DNA of 64,000 bases, taken from an uncultured virus (IMG/VR IMGVR_UViG_3300009285_001861) (taxonomy: Duplodnaviria > Heunggongvirae > Uroviricota > Caudoviricetes). Each line of letters begins with the position of its first letter. The stretch's first letter is position 1. Under the pieces are notes generated by a model. The model was not told the DNA's origin. It ran no database searches and saw nothing but the letters and a program-made list of their open reading frames with translations. Positions 2,319-61,137 of this stretch are shown in pieces. Location: IMG/VR virus record IMGVR_UViG_3300009285_001861; one strand, 5' to 3'. Made by a program: the position numbers and the translations under genes.

Positions 2319-2408
2319 CTACGCACGAGTGCATAAATCCACCCCGGCACAGCTAAGCAATAGCTCTAGCTTCAGGCTCGGAATGGAGTTGGTTGCACGA
2401 TCGAACAT
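2319..2408 (-). CDS. Putative Leu-sensing leader peptide MFDRATNSIPSLKLELLLSCAGVDLCTRA
   Basis: 29-codon ORF between promoter and Leu tRNAs; Leu codons CTG, CTA, CTA, TTG, CTT, TTA. Confidence 0.75.
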   Translation of the reverse strand: MFDRATNSIPSLKLELLLSCAGVDLCTRA

Positions 2409-4803: not shown

Positions 4804-5421
4804 CTACAGGAGTTCTGCCAAGACGGCCGGATCCGTGTAGAGGGACTTCACCCGAGCTATCCAGGCTTGGCTCTTGAGCTTGAACATGTGAGGAGGATAG
4901 CCCTTTTTGAGGGGGGCCCCCTTACAGACAACTCCCTCGAATGTCATTCCAGGTAGGGTTCCGTCCCAGACCGCTTGGGTGAGGTCCTCGGTGACATTCC
5001 CCATGTAGAGCAGCGGAGCTGTTGGAACATGCCCCTCGAAAGTCTTCACAAATTCCTTGGGCCCCATGAAGCCTCTTCGATGGATCGACACGTCAATTAG
5101 GTCTACCCGGTGCCCCGCTTCCTGGTAGTCGTGGACTCCGGCAAACGAAGAGGGGCCCCAGAACTCGAAGAAACAGGTGGCTTCTCGTTCTCGGAGGGAT
5201 TGGAAGAGGGCTGCAAAAGCTGCCTCTTGGGCCTGAATCAGTGGAAGGGCAAGTTTCCCAATAGGATCCGATAGATCCGTGAGACGGGTCCGGGTGCCGA
5301 ATTTCCAGAATCCTTTCTTGGCCGAAAAATCTGCACGCAAATTGCTGCCATCAAGTTTGTCGAAGACGTAGAAGGGGACTCCATGGATGTGGTCCTTGGA
5401 GATCGACGGATATTGTTTCAT
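4804..5421 (-). CDS. ATP-dependent RNA ligase-family nucleotidyltransferase
   Basis: Motif I KLDGSN, FFEFWG, motif IV EGVVCK, motif V FKLK. Confidence 0.75.
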   Translation of the reverse strand: MKQYPSISKDHIHGVPFYVFDKLDGSNLRADFSAKKGFWKFGTRTRLTDLSDPIGKLALPLIQAQEAAFAALFQSLREREATCFFEFWGPSSFAGVHDYQEAGHRVDLIDVSIHRRGFMGPKEFVKTFEGHVPTAPLLYMGNVTEDLTQAVWDGTLPGMTFEGVVCKGAPLKKGYPPHMFKLKSQAWIARVKSLYTDPAVLAELL

Positions 5422-5503: not shown

Positions 5504-5701
5504 ATGAACATGACGGAAGAAGAGTACGAGGCGGAATCTGGCAACTACGCCGGGTATTGCCAAGCCTGTGATGACATCACGGCGGATGGGGTGGAGCCCG
5601 ATGCCCAGGGCTACAAGTGCCCCAAGTGTGGGCAGATGCAGGTGATGGGGCTGGAGAATGCCCTGCTGGCAGGCCACATCAATCTGGGAGACGAATCATG
5701 A
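5504..5701 (+). CDS. Small zinc-ribbon protein
   Basis: CQAC...CPKC; AGGAG RBS. Confidence 0.7.
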   Translation: MNMTEEEYEAESGNYAGYCQACDDITADGVEPDAQGYKCPKCGQMQVMGLENALLAGHINLGDES

Positions 5702-6342
5702 AGCCCATCGTTTTCATTACATTTCTTCTCATGGCCTGTGGGCTTCCGGAACTCCGGATCGCGGATTCCGGGACCCCGGAGGATGCCGGTACAGAAACGG
5801 GCCGTGAGGACGCCCAGCTTCCGGGAGACACTCAAGATGCTGCCTCGGAGGTTGCTTCCGAGGATGTGGTAACTCCGGATGTTGTATCCGATGCCCCCCA
5901 GGGAGAGGATGTGACTCCCGATGTGGTGGCCCCTCCGGATGTAGCTCCCCTATGCGGGGTCGAGGGTGGTGCCTGCTGTCATACCAGCCCGGTCTGCGGC
6001 CCGGCCCTCACCTGTGTAAGCGATGGGGCGGGTGGTGCCACCTGCCGTCGAAACACGACCTGCGGGGCAGGGGGTATCAACTATGGCTACCGTGTGGATA
6101 GTGGTACTGCCCAGCCTTGTTGTCCAGGCAACGTCTGCCTTGCGGGGTCCATCTGTATGAACCGCGACCTTTACGGGACCGTGTGCTCTCCTGGGTCATG
6201 TGCCGGAGCATGTTACCTGTGCGGGGGTCTCCAGCAACCTTGCTGTATGGACAACCTGGGTGCCCGGACGTGTGCCCCTGGTTTTACCTGCCATCTGAGC
6301 ACAAACCCGGCTGTTGAGGAGACTGGTTTCTGTCGTCCCTGA
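5698..6342 (+). CDS. Cys-rich putative lipoprotein
   Basis: Signal peptide with lipobox LMAC, acidic DAG/DVVTP linker, repeated CGxxGxxCC modules. Confidence 0.7.
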   Translation: MKPIVFITFLLMACGLPELRIADSGTPEDAGTETGREDAQLPGDTQDAASEVASEDVVTPDVVSDAPQGEDVTPDVVAPPDVAPLCGVEGGACCHTSPVCGPALTCVSDGAGGATCRRNTTCGAGGINYGYRVDSGTAQPCCPGNVCLAGSICMNRDLYGTVCSPGSCAGACYLCGGLQQPCCMDNLGARTCAPGFTCHLSTNPAVEETGFCRP

Positions 6343-9743: not shown

Positions 9744-11309
9744 CCTATGACATCCAAACCAGCCGAATAATGGCCGTTTCCACCCCTCACGTCCACTAGC
9801 TTCAGGAATAGACCACCCAGGTCCTTCTGCAAAGATGCCATCAGGTTCTCGTAGGTGATGTTCCACTCATACCACATCAAGTACACAGGCTTCCCATGCT
9901 GGAAGATAACGGTCCCATTACCCTCATTCTCAGGACCCTCCCACCGAAGGTCCCGTGAGGTGATCCCCTTTTCGGACCACAGCTTGGCCCGAGCCTCTTT
10001 GTCTGTGGGGCCCCCATCAATTTCTGCCATCATGTCCCGGTAGGCTAGGTATCCACTAGGCATCACTTGCCCTCGATCTGGTCCGCTACCTTGGTGAACA
10101 TGGCAGCCAGCTCTCGAAGATCAGAGGCATGGACTCCACAATAGTCCCCACCCCTTCCCCCAATCACCATTTCAGTTGAGCCAAGCCCAAAAAACCCGCT
10201 CTCTATGTATATCTCGTGACCTATGGCCCCTTTACGGTCTCGGACCCCGATGGTGGTTCCACTGTTGCAGACGTGGATGTAGTAGGAGCCCAAAATCTTG
10301 TCCTTTTTGTTCATGGTCTTACGATACCTTGGGGTTCTTGAGTTGTTCTCGCTTCAGGTCCAAGAAACGGCGGATCGTAGACATAGTTTGTGGGGGCACC
10401 GTGGCGGCCACCCTAATCAGGGCTTCCTGATATGTGTCATCCTGTAAGCCTTCCATAGTGGCCAGGACATTGACCAGCAGGGCAGAGTAACCCGCACGGG
10501 TCTGATAGTCAGTCTCACTGCCCCTCGCGGACGTTGGGGCGGCCAACAGGAACTCAAGTCTCTCCCTGACCACACCTTGGAGGACCTTTTGACTGGCTGG
10601 GGTGAGCACATCATGGGTAGTCCTCCCCCCCAAGGTGTTCTGGATGCCCTGTAGGACACATTGCTGAATGGAGTAGACCCCACTTGCAATACCAGACTGA
10701 AGGACGGGCAGAAAATCAGTGAGGCGGTCTATTGGGTCTACAATAGAGGCTGCCCGGCGTACTGCTGACCAGATTAAAGTCTCCCGTCCTCGTAGGCGTT
10801 CCAGATCCTCACATACCCACAGGGCTTGACGCAATAGGCCCTGATAGAGTTGCATCCTGGCATAGGGGTCAAATACTTGAGTGGTCTCTGCAATGTACAG
10901 CAGGTGCCTTAACCAAGTATCTTCTGGCTCATCCTCGAAGTCCTTCGAGAGTTCCCGGATCACATATTGAAGGGCTTCCTGGTTCGCGGGATCCGCATCA
11001 AGAATTTCGTCCAGGGCATCGCATTTAGCCTCCGTAGAAGCCTTGGGCTTGTTCAAGACGCCTCCGTAGAAGCCTTGGGCTTGTTCAAGACGGTCCATGG
11101 CATCAGAGAAACTCCCGGTAGCCCTGCTTGTCCAGGACCTTGCAGAGCCGTTGGATCTTGATCTCTGCCCTCTTGTAGTCAGCTTGGACCGCCTTGAGAG
11201 CATCCGGGCTAAGGCTGGCGCCATAGTAGATAAGGGCAGCCTTCAAGTCATCCGTCTTCTTGGCCTGCTTGGAAAACTCAGGGTGGTTCGCGATGTTCTT
11301 GTACCGCAT
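9740..11309 (-). other. Four hypothetical genes (9740-10066, 10063-10314, 10319-11098, ~11103-11309)
   Basis: Tiled ORFs. Confidence 0.6.
11028..11091. repeat. Perfect 32-bp tandem duplication
   Basis: GCCTCCGTAGAAGCCTTGGGCTTGTTCAAGAC x2. Confidence 0.95.
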
Positions 11310-11391: not shown

Positions 11392-11465
11392 TGGAGTGAC
11401 TGGCTGGTTACGATCCAGCACTTCCGGGTTCACAGCCCAGCGGGCAACCACTACCCCACAGCCAC
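11392..11465 (-). tRNA. tRNA-His(GTG)
   Basis: CTGGG-CTGTGAA-CCCGG; encoded CCA; no encoded G-1. Confidence 0.85.
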
Positions 11466-11500
11466 AAACAAAGAGCCAGGGATTAACCGCCGGGTGCTCG

Positions 11501-11548
11501 TTACCGGCGGCAGGTCCTATGGGGTCGATGGGGGTTCGTGGTCTTCAT
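11501..11548 (-). CDS. Putative His-sensing internal leader MKTTNPHRPHRTCRR
   Basis: Short ORF directly 5' of tRNA-His; stop inside hairpin CCGCCGG/CCGGCGG. Confidence 0.55.
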   Translation of the reverse strand: MKTTNPHRPHRTCRR

Positions 11549-11568
11549 GGTCGTCTTTCAGAAACACT

Positions 11569-11642
11569 TGGAGAATCCTGTGGAAGTCGAATCCACTTAG
11601 AGAGCTTTGCAGGCTCCTCCCTGGCCGTTCGGGCAAGGATTC
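11569..11642 (-). tRNA. tRNA-Cys(GCA)
   Basis: GAGC-CTGCAAA-GCTC; U73; CCA. Confidence 0.88.
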
Positions 11643-11644
11643 AT

Positions 11645-11729
11645 TGGTGGAGTGTCCGGAAATCGAAGCCGGGCTGGCAGTGCCTCCCGGTTTACAGCCG
11701 GGACCCTTTCCACTCAGGTGCAACACTCC
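11645..11729 (-). tRNA. tRNA-Tyr(GTA)
   Basis: CCCGG-CTGTAAA-CCGGG; variable arm; CCA. Confidence 0.88.
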
Positions 11730-11763
11730 GTATATCGCGAAACTCGGCCGTCAGCCGACGCGA

Positions 11764-11796
11764 TCAATAACAGTGGTGATGCAGATGCTGGTTCAT
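11764..11796 (-). CDS. Putative His/Cys/Tyr-sensing leader peptide MNQHLHHHCY
   Basis: ATG AAC CAG CAT CTG CAT CAC CAC TGT TAT TGA upstream of Tyr-Cys-His tRNAs. Confidence 0.8.
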   Translation of the reverse strand: MNQHLHHHCY

Positions 11797-12103
11797 TTGA
11801 GGCTTGTACCTATACTACGCTTCTAGAGGACGATTAGCCAGGGAAATCGACAGGGGGCTAACGATTGGTCATGGGACCGCTGTAGGAGCACACTGCCCTA
11901 CCTGAGCCCCACCATGCTCTATGAGCTCACGTCGAGCCCAGCAACTTGTCTGGGTGGGCTCACATACCCGCACTTCGGCCCGTTGCAAGACTGTGACGAA
12001 ACACCATAAATGTCTGACCCTCGGTGGTGGCCTATGTGAGACATGATGGTTGTTGGGAAGAGAGGCAAGGAAGAGAAGGAAGCCTGTAAGGAACGTCATA
12101 CCA

Positions 12104-13905: not shown

Positions 13906-14001
13906 TTAGGCTGCGGGCGGGGCGGCTGGACCCACGCACGCCACCACGCAAGCGGCTGTCGCCGCTGGTGCTGTGTTGGTGCTGTGGGTCGAGAGGTTCA
14001 T
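13906..14001 (-). CDS. Putative Ala/Pro-sensing leader MNLSTHSTNTAPAATAACVVACVGPAAPPAA
   Basis: 10 Ala + 4 Pro in 31 codons, between promoter and Pro-Ala tRNAs. Confidence 0.78.
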   Translation of the reverse strand: MNLSTHSTNTAPAATAACVVACVGPAAPPAA

Positions 14002-14010
14002 GGTCCGTTC

Positions 14011-14038
14011 AGTATAGTGACAGGTTATAGGATGTCAA
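14011..14038 (-). promoter_or_regulatory. sigma70-type promoter of Pro-Ala operon
   Basis: TTGACA-N16-TATACT. Confidence 0.78.
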
Positions 14039-19717: not shown

Positions 19718-21243
19718 TGGAAGAAATCGACCTGGAGTATCCGCTAACGACCTTATGGGTGGTACTATAAGGTATACCCTATGAAGTCGAGGCTTACATT
19801 ACCGGATCCGGAAACCAACTTGGGGAAGTTGGCTCAGTTGGACTTACTCCACAGGGAGTACATCAAGTACCTACAATCGTGTATTGAGAAGATGGTCTCC
19901 GACCGGATTATCAGCCTCGCCCCATCAGCTCGACGGACATACTTCGCTAAATCGGAGTCCCTCTCGTCACAAATCGTCAAGAATGCTCAAATGCAGGCTC
20001 AAGCGATGATGCTTACTTGGGCTTCTGGGGTCTACGGTCGAGTCCTCAAAGGAAAGATCTCCTCGGAGAGAGTCACTGAAAAGAACCCTGATGGCATTTA
20101 CAGTGAATTGGAGGCTATTCAGCTCTACACGATTGGGAAGTACCATCTGACCCACGGAGGGAAATTCGGGAAGGGGTCCATCAGCCAAGAATTGGTTGAC
20201 CTATATTGGTCGTGGATGTGGGATCCCGAGTTGGTGGGAAATCCTCCAACGATCAGTGAACGGTTTCCCATGCAACTCTCGGAGATGACTTGCTCTATCG
20301 AGGAATCCAAGTCCTTACACTTCAAGGGTTGGTGGCTCCGTTTCTCCACCCTCACTCGATACAAAACCGTCGTAATACCACTCAAGGCATCTCCGTTCCT
20401 TCGTAGTCCCAAGGATGTCCAGTTGACGGTCATGGCCCAAAAAACGCCAGTTGGGAGTTGGGTCTTCCAGTTCTCCGAGAAGTCTGAGGACCCTATCTTC
20501 GATGGTTCGGCCGGTAAGTTGGGGGTTGACGTTGGACTGAATGTCTTAGCGGCCACTTCAAGTGGAACCCTTTATGGTCAACGGTTTAAGACCAAGTTCA
20601 ATAGGCTCCACAAACGAGTTCAGTCTATTCGAGCTAACAGGAAACGACAGGGCTTCTTGGAGGACTCCAGGCGTCTTTGGGCCTTGGAGCGAAGGCTCTC
20701 TGGCCAGATCAAGACGGCCACTAATACAATAGCCAATCAGCTAGTTAAGAGCCACCCGAGCACGACCTTCGTGGTTGAGGACTTGGACCTATCGGAAACC
20801 AAAGGGTCGAAGAGGTTTGCCTACCGAGCCCTCCAATTAAGCCTCGAATGCAAAGCAGTCACCGAGAAGGTGAACCCGGCTTACACGAGTCAGGAATGCC
20901 CCTCGTGTCACTATGTCTCCCGGAGTAACCGCAAGGGAGTCAAGTTTGTCTGCCAGAGTTGTGGCAGGAAGAGTCATGCGGATTTCATTGGAGGATCCAA
21001 TCTGCTCGGACGTTCCGAGGACAAACAGATTGGGTTGAAAACCCCAGTGAAATCGGTGAAAGCGATCTTGGAGGAAAGGCACCGCTTGCGGTTCAGATCA
21101 CCAAGATCCCTGTTAGTTGGAGCTCAAACCGATGAGCCCGGAGCTTACTGTGGGGGTATTGATCGAAAGGTCATCACCCGCATAGCTCCAAAACAATCGA
21201 TACCCGTTCGTCCCTCACGGGATGGATGCATATAGATTGTCAA
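19718..21243 (+). mobile_element. Non-autonomous IS200/IS605-like element (TnpB only)
   Basis: Opposite orientation to neighbours; right end TCAA; excision restores the flanking ORF. Confidence 0.55.
19781..21235 (+). CDS. tnpB: TnpB RNA-guided endonuclease
   Basis: RuvC-I GVDVGL, RuvC-II VVEDL, PAYTSQECPSC...CQSCG zinc finger, RuvC-III HAD. Confidence 0.9.
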   Translation: MKSRLTLPDPETNLGKLAQLDLLHREYIKYLQSCIEKMVSDRIISLAPSARRTYFAKSESLSSQIVKNAQMQAQAMMLTWASGVYGRVLKGKISSERVTEKNPDGIYSELEAIQLYTIGKYHLTHGGKFGKGSISQELVDLYWSWMWDPELVGNPPTISERFPMQLSEMTCSIEESKSLHFKGWWLRFSTLTRYKTVVIPLKASPFLRSPKDVQLTVMAQKTPVGSWVFQFSEKSEDPIFDGSAGKLGVDVGLNVLAATSSGTLYGQRFKTKFNRLHKRVQSIRANRKRQGFLEDSRRLWALERRLSGQIKTATNTIANQLVKSHPSTTFVVEDLDLSETKGSKRFAYRALQLSLECKAVTEKVNPAYTSQECPSCHYVSRSNRKGVKFVCQSCGRKSHADFIGGSNLLGRSEDKQIGLKTPVKSVKAILEERHRLRFRSPRSLLVGAQTDEPGAYCGGIDRKVITRIAPKQSIPVRPSRDGCI

Positions 21244-23898: not shown

Positions 23899-25056
23899 TC
23901 AATGACCATCCTTGGCATCCTTGCGTTCAAGGTAGGCGTCCGAGATGTACTTGAGGATCTTGCGGCCCTGGAAGCCAGATGCCAGCTGCTGGCCCTGATA
24001 GAAGTCCACTCTGGTCTCCGGTTCAGAGGTCACAACCACACCTTCCCGGACATGCTTAGCCCCAGGAAGGGTAGAGGCGCCGTCCCGCAATGCCTGGACA
24101 GATTCCTTGTTGAAGGGACCCCGGTATAGGACCGGGACTGTCTGAAGACCCAGGACCTCGGCCACCTTCTCAATGACCTCCCGTCCCTGGTACCGCCCAT
24201 CAACTAGAACGTCGATGATCCGGACCTGCTGCACATTGGCTTCACAGCCATAGGTCAGATCCTGAATGCCACTTCCAAAAAGCTCGGCGAAGATGATGTA
24301 GTGCTCCGTCATCGGCCATGAGCCATTATCGTTCTGGACTAAAGCACGAACCTTGTCCTCAGGAAGGAACTTGGCAGCCGCCAATGAATAGGCATTGGTT
24401 CCCTTGGGGTCCCTGGCCGTGTTGTGGGTTCCCACCATGTAGGTTGGCGTAGCCACCCCATCGGTGACCATGCCATCAACTACCAGGGCCACCCTGAAGT
24501 TGGTTCCATGAATCTTCTCGGTCACACGCACCGGATCCCCTTCCGCAAACACGTCGGGGAAGTTCTTGGCATTCTCGATGTGGGTGTAGGACTGGAATGC
24601 CCCGGGACACCGGATCATGTCTCCAGACATGTTCGAGGGGATCGGTGGCTCATACCGCTCAATCCCAAGAGCCTCTGTCCAGGTCCCCCAATGTCCCCCA
24701 AGAGGGGCAATCTCCACCCCTGTTTCGCCTGGAAGCATACCGGGCAGGGACTCGGGAACCGGGATCAGAAGACCCTGGCTCAACGCACCCCGGAGGCGGA
24801 TTGTCTTGAGCTTGTGTGCAGGGCGACCATTAGAAAGCTTCTTGGTGGCTTTGTCCTTGAGGAAATCAAAGCTGGGAAGCGACACGTCAAGCAGCGCGTC
24901 AATGGCGATGTAGATGCCCTCTCGGACATCCCCCCACTGTTCCGTCTGGGTCACGCACTGCCAATCCATCCCATCAATTGTGGCGATGGACAGCTTGTCC
25001 GCGTTCGGGTGCTTATTGAGGGTGAATTTGACTTGTCGTGCTAGTTCTGTGGCCAT
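23899..25056 (-). CDS. RNA ligase, DRB0094/Rnl5-type
   Basis: HPNADKL, IRLRGALSQGL N-terminal domain; TEKIHGTN motif I; REGVVV motif IV. Confidence 0.9.
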   Translation of the reverse strand: MATELARQVKFTLNKHPNADKLSIATIDGMDWQCVTQTEQWGDVREGIYIAIDALLDVSLPSFDFLKDKATKKLSNGRPAHKLKTIRLRGALSQGLLIPVPESLPGMLPGETGVEIAPLGGHWGTWTEALGIERYEPPIPSNMSGDMIRCPGAFQSYTHIENAKNFPDVFAEGDPVRVTEKIHGTNFRVALVVDGMVTDGVATPTYMVGTHNTARDPKGTNAYSLAAAKFLPEDKVRALVQNDNGSWPMTEHYIIFAELFGSGIQDLTYGCEANVQQVRIIDVLVDGRYQGREVIEKVAEVLGLQTVPVLYRGPFNKESVQALRDGASTLPGAKHVREGVVVTSEPETRVDFYQGQQLASGFQGRKILKYISDAYLERKDAKDGH

Positions 25057-25929: not shown

Positions 25930-26349
25930 TCACTGCTGCTGTTGCTGGGGTTGCTGGCGGGGTTGTAGGGTGACGATCCCTAGCGTAGCGGATTTGGAGT
26001 TCGCACGGTGCCCTGCACCCAACCCCGTAAGGGAGGCATCGGTGCTGCACCAAAGTGGACCAAGGGAATTCATTGAGTGCGCCGGACCTGGATCGAACAG
26101 GTATGTCTCCCTCTTCAGGGGAGTGCATGGACCACCACTGCCACCGACGCGAACGCCAAGGCGCCGCCCGGTAAACTTGTCTGTGGATCCAGTGCTCATA
26201 GTGCGCGAGGCCGGGTACGATCCGGCGACTTCTCGATTATCGGTCGAGTATTCTTCCACTGAATTACCCGCGCATGCTGCGTCAGCTGCCATCGTCGAAG
26301 CGATGGCGCCGGTAATGCACGGGCTAGCAATGTGGAGGGAGGGGTTCAT
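25930..26349 (-). CDS. Leader/read-through ORF spanning tRNA-Ile and tRNA-Phe, ending QPRQQPQQQQQ before Gln tRNAs (internal ATGs at 26199, 26073)
   Basis: 139 open codons starting just after the promoter; Ile x3, Phe, Gln x8 each placed before the cognate tRNA. Confidence 0.7.
   Translation of the reverse strand: MNPSLHIASPCITGAIASTMAADAACAGNSVEEYSTDNREVAGSYPASRTMSTGSTDKFTGRRLGVRVGGSGGPCTPLKRETYLFDPGPAHSMNSLGPLWCSTDASLTGLGAGHRANSKSATLGIVTLQPRQQPQQQQQ
26078..26150 (-). tRNA. tRNA-Phe(GAA)
   Basis: CTCCC-CTGAAGA-GGGAG. Confidence 0.85.
26202..26273 (-). tRNA. tRNA-Ile(GAT)
   Basis: CTCGA-CCGATAA-TCGAG (C33). Confidence 0.85.
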
Positions 26350-27750: not shown

Positions 27751-27807
27751 TTAACCCTTTCGGGTCAATCCGGCGGTACGTGTTCGCGTCGTGGTGAAGA
27801 ATCTCAT
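27751..27807 (-). CDS. Putative Thr-sensing leader MRFFTTTRTRTAGLTRKG
   Basis: 6 Thr codons (ACC, ACG, ACG, ACA, ACC, ACC); stop in hairpin GATTGACCC-GAAA-GGGTTAATC. Confidence 0.8.
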   Translation of the reverse strand: MRFFTTTRTRTAGLTRKG

Positions 27808-27828: not shown

Positions 27829-27857
27829 AGTATAGGGATTCCAACGGGACCTGTCAA
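27829..27857 (-). promoter_or_regulatory. sigma70-type promoter of Thr operon
   Basis: TTGACA-N17-TATACT. Confidence 0.82.
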
Positions 27858-35103: not shown

Positions 35104-35517
35104 TCAGACAGATATTCGTCTGAGCCTAGTGCCGGTAGCGGTAACCGAAACCGCGGTGTGCTCCTTATGAGAGAGCAACCCGCCCTGTGTACCGGCATTC
35201 AGCAATGCATCGGTGCACATTCGATTTGAGGTACGAGTAGAGAGGTTCGAACTCCCGACGCGCGGGGCGTAGGCCCGCCGCTCTTCCGCTGAGCTATACT
35301 CGCGTACAAAACCTTGCTGCCCACCGCACGGGTGAGCGGGTCGCACGACGAGACCAGCAGTTGAGGTGTAGTGATTCATGGTGCATGCAGAGAGAATCGA
35401 ACTCTCATTTCGCAGATTAAGAGTCTGGCGACCTGCCGTTGGCCCATGCATGCGTGTTTGCTCCCGAGGTTTTCCCTCGGGGCAACGCTTGAGCATGGAT
35501 GTGGTCAGGTGGTTCAT
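35104..35517 (-). CDS. Leader/read-through ORF spanning tRNA-Lys, Val and CAT, ending AGG CTC AGA CGA ATA before Arg(TCT)/Ile(TAT)
   Basis: 137 open codons from the promoter-proximal ATG; cognate codons in each spacer; internal ATG at 35379. Confidence 0.72.
   Translation of the reverse strand: MNHLTTSMLKRCPEGKPREQTRMHGPTAGRQTLNLRNESSILSACTMNHYTSTAGLVVRPAHPCGGQQGFVREYSSAEERRAYAPRVGSSNLSTRTSNRMCTDALLNAGTQGGLLSHKEHTAVSVTATGTRLRRISV
35130..35196 (-). tRNA. Short tRNA with CAT anticodon (Met or Ile2), reduced D arm
   Basis: 7-bp acceptor, GCTCT-CTCATAA-GGAGC, T arm GCGGT/ACCGC; 67 nt. Confidence 0.65.
35232..35303 (-). tRNA. tRNA-Val(TAC)
   Basis: GCGGG-CCTACGC-CCCGC (C33); A73. Confidence 0.8.
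35379..35453 (-). tRNA. tRNA-Lys(CTT)
   Basis: CAGA-CTCTTAA-TCTG; CCA. Confidence 0.87.
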
Positions 35518-40523: not shown

Positions 40524-41243
40524 TTACTTTGATGTCACTTTCTCATACACTGACGTGAACTTCCTCCCGTGTTTTGAAATTGCGTAGTCCAGATACTCTT
40601 GGATGGATCCCTTGTCGATGACTTTTAGGGGTACGGGGCACTGATCGATCTTGGCTCTCTCCTTCTTGGTCCAAATACCTTTGATCTCAACTAGACTACC
40701 CCCCACAATGAAGTCCGGGTAGTACTTATGTGTCCTACCTTCGTACTCATACTCGTAGCTAACCCTATTCCGTTCGATTGGGACACCATGGTCAATACAG
40801 TGGATGACGAACGCCAGCTCCCAACTACTATCACACCAATATCCCTTATACCAGCCATTCAGACCATGCCCACTCCCCTGCTTGTACCCGGAAGTCCGTA
40901 TCTTATCGAACCTCTCCCGATATTCCTGCTTCGTCTCATCAGATTGGGAAGCCCACCACTTTTTATGGTCTTGTTGGGAGGCACGTTTGGCCAGTATTGC
41001 TTTCTTTTCCGCAGCTCCGACTGCCCCGTACATTTCCTCGTATGTTTTGCCGGTTTGCCAGGGGGTAAACCCTGGGTAGAACCCTCTTCTCCCCCCCTTG
41101 TGGGTTGGCTTACCTTTTTTCTTGGTCGAGTCCCTCTCTCGTTTCCCCGGACAACTGTTTGGGCTTGGGGAACAACACCACTTCCCAGAAGACTTGAATT
41201 GAATACTGGCCTCTTGATCACATCCGAATTCACACTTTGGCAT
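40524..41243 (-). CDS. Putative homing endonuclease (PD-(D/E)xK/TnsA-like domain) inserted in the Ser tRNA cluster
   Basis: DSSWEL...YYPDF...VEIKG motif; N-terminal Cys-rich and basic DNA-binding segment. Confidence 0.75.
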   Translation of the reverse strand: MPKCEFGCDQEASIQFKSSGKWCCSPSPNSCPGKRERDSTKKKGKPTHKGGRRGFYPGFTPWQTGKTYEEMYGAVGAAEKKAILAKRASQQDHKKWWASQSDETKQEYRERFDKIRTSGYKQGSGHGLNGWYKGYWCDSSWELAFVIHCIDHGVPIERNRVSYEYEYEGRTHKYYPDFIVGGSLVEIKGIWTKKERAKIDQCPVPLKVIDKGSIQEYLDYAISKHGRKFTSVYEKVTSK

Positions 41244-41406: not shown

Positions 41407-41574
41407 TTAGGATCGCGAGACTGAGAGACTACTACTCCACCACGTAGACGTGTGTCCTACGCAGCGGGTCGAGTGGGATTCAAACCCACGGACGCTTTTC
41501 AGCGCCTCCACGTTAGCAGTGTGGTGCCTTAGGTCTCTCGGCCACCGACCCAGAGTTGTTTCGAGAAGAGTCAC
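41407..41574 (-). CDS. Putative Ser-sensing leader ORF reading through tRNA-Ser(GCT), ending TSTWWSSSLSVSRS
   Basis: TCT, AGT x3, TCA, TCG, TCC in spacer; stop TAA in loop of GCGATCC/GGATCGC hairpin; GTG start uncertain. Confidence 0.55.
   Translation of the reverse strand: MTLLETTLGRWPRDLRHHTANVEALKSVRGFESHSTRCVGHTSTWWSSSLSVSRS
41465..41551 (-). tRNA. tRNA-Ser(GCT)
   Basis: CCACA-CTGCTAA-CGTGG (A31-C39); long variable arm. Confidence 0.87.
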
Positions 41575-46629: not shown

Positions 46630-47043
46630 ATGAAGATCACCGTTGTGGCCCCCAATGAGCCCGACAGACTTGGACCCTCGGTCCCACCTTTTCGATACCA
46701 TCTGGACGCTGTTGTGGCCTACATGTTGGCACATGGGCGCCCAAGAATCCGTCTGGTCCAATTCTCTGAGACGGTGTATTGGGCTGTTGAGGGCAGCCAT
46801 CGGCTTGCCGCTGCCCAGGAACTTGGGCTAATCCCCGAGTTTGTGGTGATGACCGGAAAATTCCTTACTTCTCAAGAATACGGGAATGACTATAACGCTT
46901 GGGGGGAAGACCACTTAGTGACCCCCAAGGAGTTTATCTTCAATGTAGGCCGTCCCAGTGGCAGGTCCTACGAATTCGATGCCTCTGTTCTTGTTGCCAG
47001 ATCCCCAAAGACCTGTAGTGGAGCCGAAGCCCCATGCCAGTGA
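46630..47043 (+). CDS. ParB/sulfiredoxin-like domain protein
   Basis: AVEGSHRLAAAQELG. Confidence 0.55.
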   Translation: MKITVVAPNEPDRLGPSVPPFRYHLDAVVAYMLAHGRPRIRLVQFSETVYWAVEGSHRLAAAQELGLIPEFVVMTGKFLTSQEYGNDYNAWGEDHLVTPKEFIFNVGRPSGRSYEFDASVLVARSPKTCSGAEAPCQ

Positions 47044-47750
47044 AGTGCTACGTCCCTAGCTGTTCCTCACCGGCAGGCCCCGGGATGGGCCCTTGGGTGC
47101 CCTTCTGTGCCAAGCACTGGTTCGCCTGCCCCTGGGAAGTCCGGGAGCCCCTGTTCCGCTTCTACCGGGCACCACCTGCCAGCAAAGAGGATGATTGGGA
47201 GAACCCCTTGCAGGATTCTTGGGTGGGTGCAGTAATGACTGCCCTTGTTGAGCTTGGCGTCAAGATACGGATCCTTCTATTGGACATCGATGGGGTCCTA
47301 AATTCCCACGGACATTGGGCCCGCCGTAGCCCAGAGCTACGGGCCATTGAAGAAGCCAGCGTGATCCGGGGCGGTACCGACCCAGCCTGTATGGCGCATC
47401 TCAATGAGATCGTGTCCAGGACCAGTTGCTTGGTTGTTCTCAGCAGCACAATCCGAAGGTTCGAGACCTTGGAAGACCTCCAGAGTCACTTCAACCAATA
47501 TGGGTTCGTGGGGACGTTATTGGACCGCACCCCCTACATCAACGAGAGCCGGTGTAGGGGGCGGGAAATTGACATGTGGTTGAAGGCCCATCCCGAGGTG
47601 GCATCTTTTGCCATCTTGGACGATGAGGGGGACATGGATCCCCACCTGGACAAGTGGGTCAAGACCAGCATGCACAAGGAGGGACTGGAACGGGGGCATA
47701 TCGAGAGGGTATGTACCCTACTTGGAGTTCCCGCCGTTCCCGTCAAGTAG
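47034..47750 (+). CDS. HAD-domain protein (Swiss Army Knife RNA-repair type)
   Basis: LDIDGVLN, VLSST, RGREI..WL, FAILDD. Confidence 0.85.
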   Translation: MPVKCYVPSCSSPAGPGMGPWVPFCAKHWFACPWEVREPLFRFYRAPPASKEDDWENPLQDSWVGAVMTALVELGVKIRILLLDIDGVLNSHGHWARRSPELRAIEEASVIRGGTDPACMAHLNEIVSRTSCLVVLSSTIRRFETLEDLQSHFNQYGFVGTLLDRTPYINESRCRGREIDMWLKAHPEVASFAILDDEGDMDPHLDKWVKTSMHKEGLERGHIERVCTLLGVPAVPVK

Positions 47751-49076: not shown

Positions 49077-49138
49077 ATATTGGTACGCGCGCTCCGCGCT
49101 GCGGTACCTTCGGGATGTTGTCGTTCTGTGGTTTTCAT
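49067..49138 (-). CDS. Putative internal leader MKTTERQHPEGTAARSARTNMRE before Gly tRNAs
   Basis: Single GGT codon in a hairpin arm pairing with the tRNA 5' end; stop inside the tRNA. Confidence 0.45.
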   Translation of the reverse strand: MKTTERQHPEGTAARSARTNMRE

Positions 49139-49423: not shown

Positions 49424-49534
49424 TCAGGTGGTTGGCCTAATACGCCGTCGTCGCTGCACACGCCCGCAACCTCGCGCCAGCGTTCCGCCGTCACGTCCGT
49501 GGGTTGTCGTCTTGGTGTACATCGAGAAGCTCAT
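49424..49534 (-). CDS. Putative Arg/Gly-sensing leader MSFSMYTKTTTHGRDGGTLARGCGRVQRRRRIRPTT
   Basis: 8 Arg (CGT, CGA, CGG, AGG) + 5 Gly codons in 36. Confidence 0.78.
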   Translation of the reverse strand: MSFSMYTKTTTHGRDGGTLARGCGRVQRRRRIRPTT

Positions 49535-58514: not shown

Positions 58515-58571
58515 TTATGTGCGTTCGGAATCCGATTCGCGCTCTCGCTCTGATGTCGTGTAGGAGTTCAT
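58515..58571 (-). CDS. Putative Glu/Asp-sensing leader MNSYTTSERERESDSERT
   Basis: GAG, GAG, GAA, GAT, GAA; stop at apex of ACGCAC/GTGCGT hairpin. Confidence 0.78.
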   Translation of the reverse strand: MNSYTTSERERESDSERT

Positions 58572-58589: not shown

Positions 58590-58617
58590 AGTATAGGGAG
58601 GAAAACGAAGCTGTCAA
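58590..58617 (-). promoter_or_regulatory. sigma70-type promoter of Glu-Asp-Glu operon
   Basis: TTGACA-N16-TATACT. Confidence 0.78.
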
Positions 58618-59352: not shown

Positions 59353-60438
59353 ATGTTCCCACTATACACCCCTGAAGCGTTCCAGGCAGCAAAATCTTTC
59401 ACCTTACTACCCCTGAAGTGTCAACAGTGCCCCACCACCATCTATCGGACCAAGAAGGCTCTTAAGTACGCAATCCTGAAAGGCAAGGAGAAATTCTTTT
59501 GCCCCAAGTGCCTTCCCCAATCCCAGGTGTCATCCATCGAGGTAGCCTGCCTGACTTGCGGGGTCAAGTTCTTGAAGCGGGCATCCCAATGTAAGAAAAC
59601 CCCCAATCACTTTTGTAGTCGGTCCTGTGCAGTGAAGACCAACAATGTCAAGACCCCCAAGAGGAAGGTTGAGGGCTCCTGTCGAACCTGTCAGAAGCCT
59701 ACACATACCAAAGACCGGTATTGCTCGGATTCCTGTAAGGAGGTGGCCCGTCAAATCTGGGAGGCGGAACGGGAGCTAGAGTGGCAGAAGCCCCCCGTCA
59801 AGGTCAAGGGACCCCGTAAGCCTAGGGCGAGTAGTGGATACAAGAAGATTGGAAGGTCCCCAGCACAAAAGCGGGAGGACGGGAAGGCAGGGGTTGTGGC
59901 CTGGAGGCAACGCACCAAGCTCAAAGCCATTGAGTACAAGGGAGGATGCTGCCAAACATGCGGGTACCGGAAATGTGTATGGGCTCTCTCTTTCCACCAT
60001 GTGGACCCCTCACAGAAGGACTTTGGCATTGGTGGTCGGAATCTTAAGTCCTGGGCCCGTATTCAGGTGGAGTTGGACAAGTGTGTCCTAATTTGTAGTA
60101 ACTGTCATGCAGAAGTCCATGATGCCCTGGACAGCACCCCTGATGCTAAGGCCCATTGGAGGAAACGCCTCAAGATTAAGGCCATTGAGTACAAAGGAGG
60201 TCATTGTTGCCTTTGCGGGTACCACAACTGCAACAGGGCATTGAGTTTTCACCATTTGGACCCGTCCCAAAAGGACTTCAACATCTCCAGGGTTAGTAGA
60301 ACCTGGGAAAGCATACAACCGGAGTTGGATAAGTGTGTCCTACTCTGCATGAACTGCCATGGGGAAGTTCATGCTGGCACTGCTATTTTAGACTCGATGG
60401 TAGACCGTACTGGAATCGAACCAGTTTCTACGGGTTAA
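59353..60438 (+). CDS. Free-standing homing endonuclease with two tandem HNH domains
   Basis: Two copies of KAIEYKGG.C..CGY...LSFHH.DPSQKDF...ELDKCVL.C.NCH.EVH; N-terminal FCSRSC/YCSDSC zinc fingers. Confidence 0.9.
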   Translation: MFPLYTPEAFQAAKSFTLLPLKCQQCPTTIYRTKKALKYAILKGKEKFFCPKCLPQSQVSSIEVACLTCGVKFLKRASQCKKTPNHFCSRSCAVKTNNVKTPKRKVEGSCRTCQKPTHTKDRYCSDSCKEVARQIWEAERELEWQKPPVKVKGPRKPRASSGYKKIGRSPAQKREDGKAGVVAWRQRTKLKAIEYKGGCCQTCGYRKCVWALSFHHVDPSQKDFGIGGRNLKSWARIQVELDKCVLICSNCHAEVHDALDSTPDAKAHWRKRLKIKAIEYKGGHCCLCGYHNCNRALSFHHLDPSQKDFNISRVSRTWESIQPELDKCVLLCMNCHGEVHAGTAILDSMVDRTGIEPVSTG

Positions 60439-60472
60439 AAGCCACGCTGCCCAACCAATAGGCCAACGGTCC
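60398..60472 (-). tRNA. tRNA-Lys(TTT)
   Basis: Loop CTTTTAA; bulged anticodon stem; CCA. Confidence 0.82.
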
Positions 60473-60523
60473 TCAATTGGAGGCGTCGGCGGGTTTGAGT
60501 CGAAGTGAGAAGGAAAACGTCAT
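60473..60523 (-). CDS. Putative internal leader MTFSFSLRLKPADASN before tRNA-Lys(TTT)
   Basis: GAGGT RBS; AAA codon within CTCAA/TTGAG stem; stop abuts tRNA +1. Confidence 0.5.
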   Translation of the reverse strand: MTFSFSLRLKPADASN

Positions 60524-60633: not shown

Positions 60634-60684
60634 CTAGGCGTTGGCGTTCCGATTCAGTGTTCCAGGTTTCAAGAGGGCGTACAT
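60634..60684 (-). CDS. Putative Asn/Lys-sensing leader MYALLKPGTLNRNANA
   Basis: AAA, AAT, AAC, AAC; stop at apex of GCCAACGC/GCGTTGGC hairpin. Confidence 0.72.
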   Translation of the reverse strand: MYALLKPGTLNRNANA

Positions 60685-60917: not shown

Positions 60918-60996
60918 TGGTAACGGGAGCAGGATTTGAACCTGCGATCTCCAGCGTATGAAGCTGGCGGGTTGAACCAGACTACCCCATCCCGCA
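60918..60996 (-). tRNA. tRNA-Met(CAT), initiator-like
   Basis: U1xU72 mismatch, purine11-pyrimidine24, CCAGC-TTCATAC-GCTGG; lacks the three G-C pairs. Confidence 0.82.
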
Positions 60997-61137
60997 ATAA
61001 GTCCGGGGATTGTGGCCCTGGTTGGACCCGCAACCCCGGTCCCAACGATGACTGCCCATCGTTGGACCCCTGCCCGACCTGTAGCCTCCTGTGAAGCTAC
61101 CTTGAGTAATCAGTTCAAGTGCCGGACCGATCAATTC

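Follow-up and report, generated by a model that had tools for sequence, protein, structure and literature searches.

Leader frames naming their own tRNAs precede most tRNA units of an uncultured phage

Introduction

In trpL and hisL the cognate codons stand at the base of a hairpin, TnaC senses free tryptophan via its nascent peptide, and some tRNA genes of Firmicutes are under T-box control. The published mechanism nearest to the arrangement described here is, from the part of the source consulted, the mycobacterial polycysteine leaderless sORF, a “ribulon” in which a hidden ribosome-binding site becomes accessible once the ribosome stalls (bioRxiv 10.1101/834739). As for phage tRNAs, T5-like phages overexpress them from a strong promoter, and the terms “leader” and “attenuat” are absent from the two papers concerned (PMC11555353, PMC10264068). 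We found no description of codon-sensing leaders for tRNA genes in the literature searched, subscription journals being mostly outside it.

Here we describe such leaders in a phage whose virus record is a single one of 485,040 bases (called G000). The analysis centres on a stretch of 64,000 nucleotides inside it, hereafter the window, in which what is probably a control logic otherwise known for amino-acid genes stands before tRNA genes. The leader feature is genuine, recurs systematically and has been conserved in one clade.

Results

The Tyr/Cys/His unit

An earlier note, made from the letters alone, had proposed that a ten-codon leader heads the tRNA-Tyr, tRNA-Cys and tRNA-His genes, with six codons out of ten naming these amino acids. 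All its coordinates are confirmed, and the unit reads as follows:

11812..11851, minus strand: promoter candidate, with the box GTCGATTT (11851-11844), a weak -35 TGGCTA (11840-11835), 17 nt, and the -10 TAGTAT (11817-11812)
11764..11796, minus strand: leader 1, MNQHLHHHCY then stop, ATG at 11796 and TGA at 11766-11764
11734..11764, minus strand: predicted hairpin, from the stop codon to 4 nt short of tRNA-Tyr
11645..11729, minus strand: tRNA-Tyr(GTA) with an atypical T-stem (ARAGORN; below the Rfam gathering score)
11569..11642, minus strand: tRNA-Cys(GCA) with U73 (ARAGORN; below the Rfam gathering score)
11501..11548, minus strand: leader 2, MKTTNPHRPHRTCRR then stop, with two His codons, ending 35 nt before tRNA-His
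11486..11511, minus strand: predicted GC hairpin that follows the two His codons of the second leader
11392..11465, minus strand: tRNA-His(GTG), without encoded G-1 and with U73 (ARAGORN; passes the Rfam gathering threshold)

The cognate codons of leader 1 are four His, one Cys and one Tyr, a density that chance would rarely give: P(at least 6 of 9) = 1.2e-5. When compared with all ATG mini-ORFs of 8-40 codons in the whole genome (7,686), leader 1 has the highest His/Cys/Tyr fraction, and by binomial tail 2/7,686 are equally extreme. The second mini-ORF, put forward in the same note as a further layer of control, does carry its two His codons in front of tRNA-His; taken alone it is not significant (P = 0.059; 324/7,686 mini-ORFs). 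The hairpin noted between leader 1 and tRNA-Tyr is likewise present as a pairing, ATCGCG (11764-11759) with CGCGAT (11739-11734) closing around an inner 6-bp stem, while its region is no more stable than shuffles (z 0.11; z -1.23).

Most relatives have a tRNA-His with G-1 and C73, unlike that of the phage. A tRNA-His guanylyltransferase of the Thg1 family is encoded at G000:C1:93544-93939, about 2 kb past the window end, and because this phage enzyme could add G-1, the gene is not necessarily dead despite lacking G-1 and having U73. The next gene after tRNA-His contains an exact tandem duplication of 32 nt (11028-11091); this length is not a multiple of three, and the duplication may represent a frame shift or an assembly artefact.

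Leaders across the window

ARAGORN detects 36 tRNAs in the genome, 34 of them in the window, to which Rfam adds one tRNA-Asn (60608-60532), detected by Rfam only. The 35 tRNAs of the window were grouped into 20 units, and the leader of each was defined by a fixed rule, as the first ATG to open a frame that extends to 60 nt or less from the tRNA. This rule yields leaders for 17 of the 20 units. Their match to their own tRNAs scores 37.0, as compared with a permutation mean of 0.2 (sd 4.9, maximum 29.8), a score reached in none of 200,000 permutations. The rule misses three Ser units, which have no ATG, and scores below zero are found for Met, for a nested Gly leader and for Arg-tct. The principal leaders are:

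2319..2408, minus strand: leader with six Leu codons (all five anticodons covered) before five tRNA-Leu; TTGACA promoter at 2449
13906..14001, minus strand: leader with Pro/Ala at 14 of 30 codons, before tRNA-Pro and tRNA-Ala; promoter at 14038
25930..26349, minus strand: 139-codon leader frame running through tRNA-Ile and tRNA-Phe, with a Gln run 27 nt before two tRNA-Gln
27751..27807, minus strand: leader MRFFTTTRTRTAGLTRKG then stop, before three tRNA-Thr; promoter at 27857
35104..35517, minus strand: 137-codon leader frame running through tRNA-Lys(ctt) and tRNA-Val, with AGG/AGA codons 7 nt before tRNA-Arg(tct)
41407..41574, minus strand: GTG-started 55-codon frame running through tRNA-Ser(gct) into a run of seven Ser, all four Ser anticodons covered
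49424..49534, minus strand: leader with Arg/Gly at 13 of 35 codons, before three tRNA-Arg and two tRNA-Gly; nested Gly leader at 49138
58515..58571, minus strand: leader MNSYTTSERERESDSERT then stop, before tRNA-Glu, tRNA-Asp and tRNA-Glu; promoter at 58617
60634..60684, minus strand: leader (three Asn, Lys AAA) before tRNA-Asn and tRNA-Lys(ttt); nested Lys(ttt) leader at 60523

The Ser operon offers a test outside the rule: a GTG placed 5 nt behind a TAATAT box opens its 55-codon Ser frame, and the folding model pairs the Ser codons with the 5' strand of the tRNA-Ser that follows, in the same geometry as in the units picked by the rule. When units are assigned by hand, 31 of 32 have cognate codons, and 114 of these 137 codons are read by the anticodons of their own operon. 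The match extends to isoacceptors, with AAG before Lys-ctt, AAA before Lys-ttt, AGA before Arg-tct, GGT before Gly-gcc and GGG before Gly-tcc; several checkpoints nevertheless consist of one codon only.

Two layouts can be distinguished. Leaders that end at a stop codon name several tRNAs, and in all three G000 operons that combine a stop-ended first leader with a nested second one, the nested tRNA is among those named by the first leader (His x4, Gly x5, Lys AAA), which suggests a control of the whole transcript. In the other layout the frame continues through tRNA genes, most extensively in the sister phage G005, where one frame of 277 codons crosses six tRNAs and ends in a Gln run. The four internal ATGs that the rule picks in two read-through operons of G000 (26349 and 35517) all lie in the frame of the first ATG, and at five G005 checkpoints an own ATG is absent and the cognate codon is in the through frame. 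We considered whether frames crossing tRNAs are beyond chance by themselves and rejected it: 7 of 11 leaderless relatives have frames that cross 2-4 tRNAs.

Three other tRNAs call for a remark. The one that ARAGORN reports with the anticodon “ttta” (60398-60472) looks like a tRNA-Lys(TTT) with a bulged anticodon stem, AAA being present in its leader. The region 60918-61080 contains a tRNA-Met(cat) with an unpaired 1:72 and, upstream, an ATG buried in a 10-bp hairpin; speculatively, this ATG could sense the initiator tRNA at the start codon. Outside the main region (G000:C1:222464-222540) ARAGORN finds a tRNA with the anticodon TTA, possibly an ochre suppressor.

Genome and host

The 2.8 kb of G000 that were tested are identical to LR745208.1, an unannotated uncultured phage, and the genome has terminase and portal matches as well as genes for tRNA repair and maturation. 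These are RNA ligases, a HAD repair domain, RtcB and a nucleotidyltransferase (window 4807-5421, 23902-25056 and 47034-47747; L009:10865-12028; L020:16404-17573), which together suggest a kit for the repair and maturation of tRNAs. Searches for a phage RNase P RNA and a phage tmRNA found neither. Endonuclease-like genes lie beside the Leu cluster (1169-1813) and inside the Ser operon (40527-41243), with weak matches to HNH and phage endonuclease I; homologues of the former adjoin tRNAs in G005. An IS605/TnpB-like (Cas12f-related) ORF occupies 19781-21232 on the plus strand.

Concerning the host, a GroEL search of genomes gave no relative. A Cys-rich lipoprotein-like ORF (5617-6342) has an Atlas look-alike in Myxococcota clusters (0.88, a lead only) and no further database homologue within the length range searched; the lead toward a Myxococcota host is weak.

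Relatives and conservation

Portal searches recovered 11 loci, then 78, and a tree of the portal proteins places G000, with moderate support (85/86), as the sister of G005-G010. By permutation the leader-tRNA match is positive in G005 (6/20,000) and weakly so in G010 (539/20,000). It is negative in the other 15 of 17 relatives with enough tRNAs (at least 1,391 of 20,000), several relatives being covered only around their strongest tRNA hits and G015, G016 and G017 being set aside for having too few tRNAs.

Homologues of the leaders for Leu, Thr, Ile, Val, Lys and Phe can be recognised in G005. When 10 leader pairs were aligned as DNA without regard to frame, the alignments fell mostly in frame. 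For the 7 pairs with a score of at least 25, identity by codon position within the in-frame blocks is 68, 64 and 53 of 96, the third position being lower (P = 0.017). The codon differences in these blocks are 17 synonymous and 48 non-synonymous; the core of the Thr leader has five synonymous changes in nine codons. Beyond the cognate codons the leader peptides show no conservation.

No homologue of the Tyr/Cys/His leader was found: tRNA-His and tRNA-Tyr are absent from the G005 and G010 fragments, and the tRNA-Cys of G005 has no Cys codon ahead. An exact 24-nt search of metagenomes returned only 2 exact copies, a motif search with the Tyr/Cys tRNAs returned G005, G010 and one unrelated phage with no match in cellular genomes, and searches with the neighbouring genes yielded at most 2 distant loci. 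G011 and G012, both closely related, have one tRNA each, a tRNA-Tyr in G012, and no leader before it.

Some observations on the relatives deserve mention in their own right. The tRNA-Cys(gca) of G005 and G010 (L067 and L193) has a long variable arm and a D-arm in common with the tRNA-Tyr of the window (11645-11729), which suggests a switch of anticodon from Tyr to Cys. Between tRNA-Cys and tRNA-Asn of G010 (L193) lies a decayed tRNA-Asn remnant that retains its old checkpoint; after it come a new Asn leader and another tRNA-Asn, so that the leader was rebuilt when the tRNA was replaced. In the unrelated phage G054 (L319), short ORFs overlap two similar U-tract terminators before both tRNA blocks and are possibly terminator-type leaders. 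In leaderless relatives, the spacers before the Cys, Trp, Glu and Asp tRNAs (L064-L066) show a recurring motif, then a hairpin.

Promoters and translation starts

The earlier note had seen no clear sigma70 promoter before leader 1. A consensus scanner indeed finds none, yet the stretch 11851-11812 holds a candidate. Its -35 matches at 3/6 positions only, as compared with 10-11/12 for the promoters of sister leaders. We retain it, weak -35 included, because in G005 and G010 the same upstream box lies 3 nt ahead of TTGACA or a near match. The genome (485 kb) has three occurrences of this motif class, GTCGATTT or GTAGATTT with a -10 box 26 nt further on, and all three stand in front of tRNA units, that of Tyr included.

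More generally, 6 of the 16 best sigma-70 matches of the genome head tRNA leaders, and the distance from -10 box to ATG is 9-21 nt, which with the presumed transcription starts leaves little room upstream of the ATG (a predicted 5' UTR of about 9 nt for the Tyr unit). The leaders, that of Tyr among them, are without clear Shine-Dalgarno (for Leu there is an AGGA 4 nt upstream), whereas such a site is present in 55 of 153 long ORFs. A search for the pattern of promoter plus start gave 120 viral loci, 5 of them with a tRNA within 400 nt, and an evident cognate leader in none.

Terminators, folding and pairing

The resemblance to hisL proposed in the earlier note concerns the sensor and does not extend to the output: in neither G000 nor G005 is there an intrinsic-terminator-like site on the way from a leader to its tRNA. 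Mutually exclusive terminator and antiterminator structures were not found either, and the alternative pairings that were found involve the tRNA itself. At its gathering threshold Rfam gives for the window only tRNA matches (31) and no T-box, riboswitch or other cis-regulatory family.

In the predicted structures the cognate codons stand at the base of an irregular stem that reaches the 5' end of the tRNA. Their pairing with positions -8..+8 of the tRNA exceeds that of shifted labels (59/20,000, a lenient control), and they pair more with their own tRNA than with others (69/100,000); this latter result holds for G000 alone (153) and fails for G005 alone (24,862). The Tyr and His units rank 15th and 25th of 31 for this duplex. 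Leaderless relatives keep the 5' strand of the tRNA free (0.41 versus 0.64 in shuffles, 83 spacers). In the leader clade its burial equals that of shuffles (0.69 versus 0.67, 31 units, P = 0.16), G000 alone burying it more (0.76 versus 0.65, P = 0.003), and the anti-tRNA pairing of the Tyr unit is no better than chance (0.65 versus 0.66). In silico, real leaders disrupt the acceptor stem in 13 of 16 units; shuffled leaders are nearly as disruptive, with 9.2 expected, for which we demoted the idea that the naked leader destroys the cloverleaf. Folding of the whole three-tRNA precursor did not recover the cloverleafs. On balance the folding results favour the pairing moderately over the set of units and weakly for that of Tyr.

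A stalled ribosome covers 5-9 nt beyond the A-site. In the naked model of the Tyr unit, the codons His6 to Cys9 pair with -2..+11 of tRNA-Tyr, extending the hairpin. When the leader is masked up to ATG+19..+35 the acceptor stem scores at least 0.8, and at most 0.4 with masks to +36..+58. With the above coverage the modelled unit would be on for stalls at His and Cys, borderline at Tyr10 and off at the stop codon. The modelled switch is not uniform: at His10 of leader 2 it comes out as off, and opening is poor for Val, Gly and Lys-ttt.

Discussion

Taken as a set, the leaders are very probably a ribosome-based sensor of tRNA supply. The claim of the earlier note that a codon-sensing leader with a nested second one heads these tRNA genes is strongly supported by the genome-wide match, by the Ser operon that escaped the rule and by the in-frame homologues of the sister phages. 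Each phage tRNA is probably produced mainly when ribosomes stall for lack of it.

How the sensor would act can be proposed as follows. A sigma-70-type promoter, of which the motifs are seen, would start the transcript a few bases before a start codon devoid of Shine-Dalgarno, and a ribosome would translate the leader toward the predicted stem that ends at the tRNA. As long as charged His-, Cys- and Tyr-tRNAs are plentiful, the ribosome would finish and depart, the leader or the melted arm of the hairpin would pair with the 5' end of the tRNA, and the precursor, uncut, would decay. If a tRNA becomes scarce, by starvation or by cleavage by a host defence nuclease, the ribosome stalled on the cognate codon would cover the blocking strand, so that the cloverleaf could fold and host RNase P free the tRNA. 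The RNase P protein binds the single-stranded 5' leader, in the consulted part of the source (PMC8447495), so burying this region could gate maturation. Later tRNAs would be gated by a nested leader, like His here, or by the same frame running on through the upstream tRNA gene, such frames being observed. The serial checkpoints of the 277-codon frame of G005 fit a release tRNA by tRNA better than a single decision of termination. We hold this full model, sensor modules that supply each tRNA on demand with maturation as the controlled step, to be about equally likely right or wrong.

A further step is more tentative, and we put it somewhat short of even: pre-tRNAs might double as mRNAs, with serial checkpoints where unneeded tRNA genes are translated through and only the tRNA of the stalled codon is released for RNase P.

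The same sensor might instead have a transcriptional output, tnaC-like or by a pause hairpin: the finished leader would expose a C-rich Rho site, with termination near the first tRNA, and a stall would block it. We consider this, the chief alternative, rather unlikely, in spite of several favourable traits. The first 30 nt of the leaders contain 39% C and 17% G, the hairpins come after the cognate codons, and the stop-type first leaders of G000 name the nested tRNA downstream in every case. Rho has been proposed for terminator-less Cys leaders of Actinobacteria (PMC1262725, in the part consulted). On the other hand, the Tyr leader offers only about 40 nt before its hairpin, which is short for Rho; the stop-ended Thr and Arg-tct checkpoints of G005 precede units that they do not name, no promoter being found between; and read-through frames would shield the RNA when the tRNA is plentiful, a sign opposite to the one required unless termination is confined to the last checkpoint.

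The leaders could also be translated for another purpose, the ribosome traffic protecting or chaperoning the precursor, or acting on the hairpin as a brake for a graded tuning; the sign might even be reversed, giving a positive feedback. The single-codon checkpoints and the modelled switch, inconsistent between units, go in this direction, as does the finding that in the model a stall near the hairpin base can melt the hairpin and close the tRNA (Tyr10, His10). A chaperone, however, requires no cognate codons, yet the match reaches the isoacceptor level, and a reversed sign would cut the supply when it is needed; we regard this whole group of explanations as quite unlikely.

It is very unlikely that the frames are untranslated relics or chance, i.e. 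captured coding scraps or a composition bias beside tRNA genes. The lack of clear Shine-Dalgarno sites and the absence from 15 of 17 tested relatives would agree with it; against it stand the permutations and the Ser operon, the in-frame conservation with synonymous changes, particularly in the Thr leader, and the placement of leaders right behind the best promoters of the genome. Finally, classical intrinsic attenuation of the hisL type, with terminators too degenerate for the scan, is hardly credible: it has for it the cognate codons at the hairpin base and 4-6 U after a few hairpins (Gln, Arg-tct), but no leader gave a terminator-like call, the Tyr hairpin is followed by ATAC and then the tRNA, and the clade does possess an ordinary terminator: the G005 array closes with a stem of 13 bp and a U tract.

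Sensors that name the codons of their own tRNA imply that this phage uses its tRNAs to replace, on demand, species that have been depleted or cleaved. Each leader could readily serve to report the tRNA running short during infection. If the more tentative reading with serial checkpoints is true, it would provide a feedback isoacceptor by isoacceptor over almost the whole tRNA set, without protein regulator or terminator. If maturation is gated, translation would directly control tRNA processing, and tRNA genes would be read as coding sequence; neither was found in the literature searched. The leader modules span 60-170 nt and lend themselves to tests in laboratory bacteria.

Among known systems, hisL, trpL, the multivalent thrL and ilvL, and pheM-pheST have, like the phage leaders, a short 5' ORF rich in cognate codons, and the attenuators of this type share with them several amino acids per leader, codons at the base of a hairpin and a report on charged-tRNA supply (PMC1262725, in the part consulted). 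The phage leaders differ in targeting tRNA genes, in having no U-tract terminator and no clear Shine-Dalgarno, in their repeated checkpoints and in the frames that, in some cases, run through tRNA genes. Without terminator, and with tRNAs instead of biosynthesis or synthetase genes as targets, they fall outside the hisL class. The tnaC leader, mentioned in the same source (PMC1262725), resembles them by its lack of intrinsic terminator and its C-rich leader, and there a stall turns expression on; by contrast the phage peptides are not conserved beyond cognate codons, and the use of Rho in the phage is hypothetical. With the tRNA clusters by which other phages counter tRNA-cleaving defences (PMC11555353 and PMC10264068, in the parts consulted) G000 shares a large tRNA set, strong sigma-70-type promoters and tRNA repair and maturation genes nearby.

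The Cys ribulon, as far as the consulted part of its report goes, resembles the phage system by an ORF without clear Shine-Dalgarno, presumably first in the phage transcripts, by having no terminator and many independent loci built alike, and, if our model is right, by a stalled ribosome that blocks the duplex hiding a downstream site. In the ribulon, which responds to one amino acid, what lies hidden is the ribosome-binding site of a gene for a protein; in the phage the proposed site is the 5' end of a tRNA and nearly all amino acids are concerned. What is new here is at least a variant of leader-peptide control, and it would be a new kind of control if the gating of maturation and the translation through tRNA genes were confirmed.
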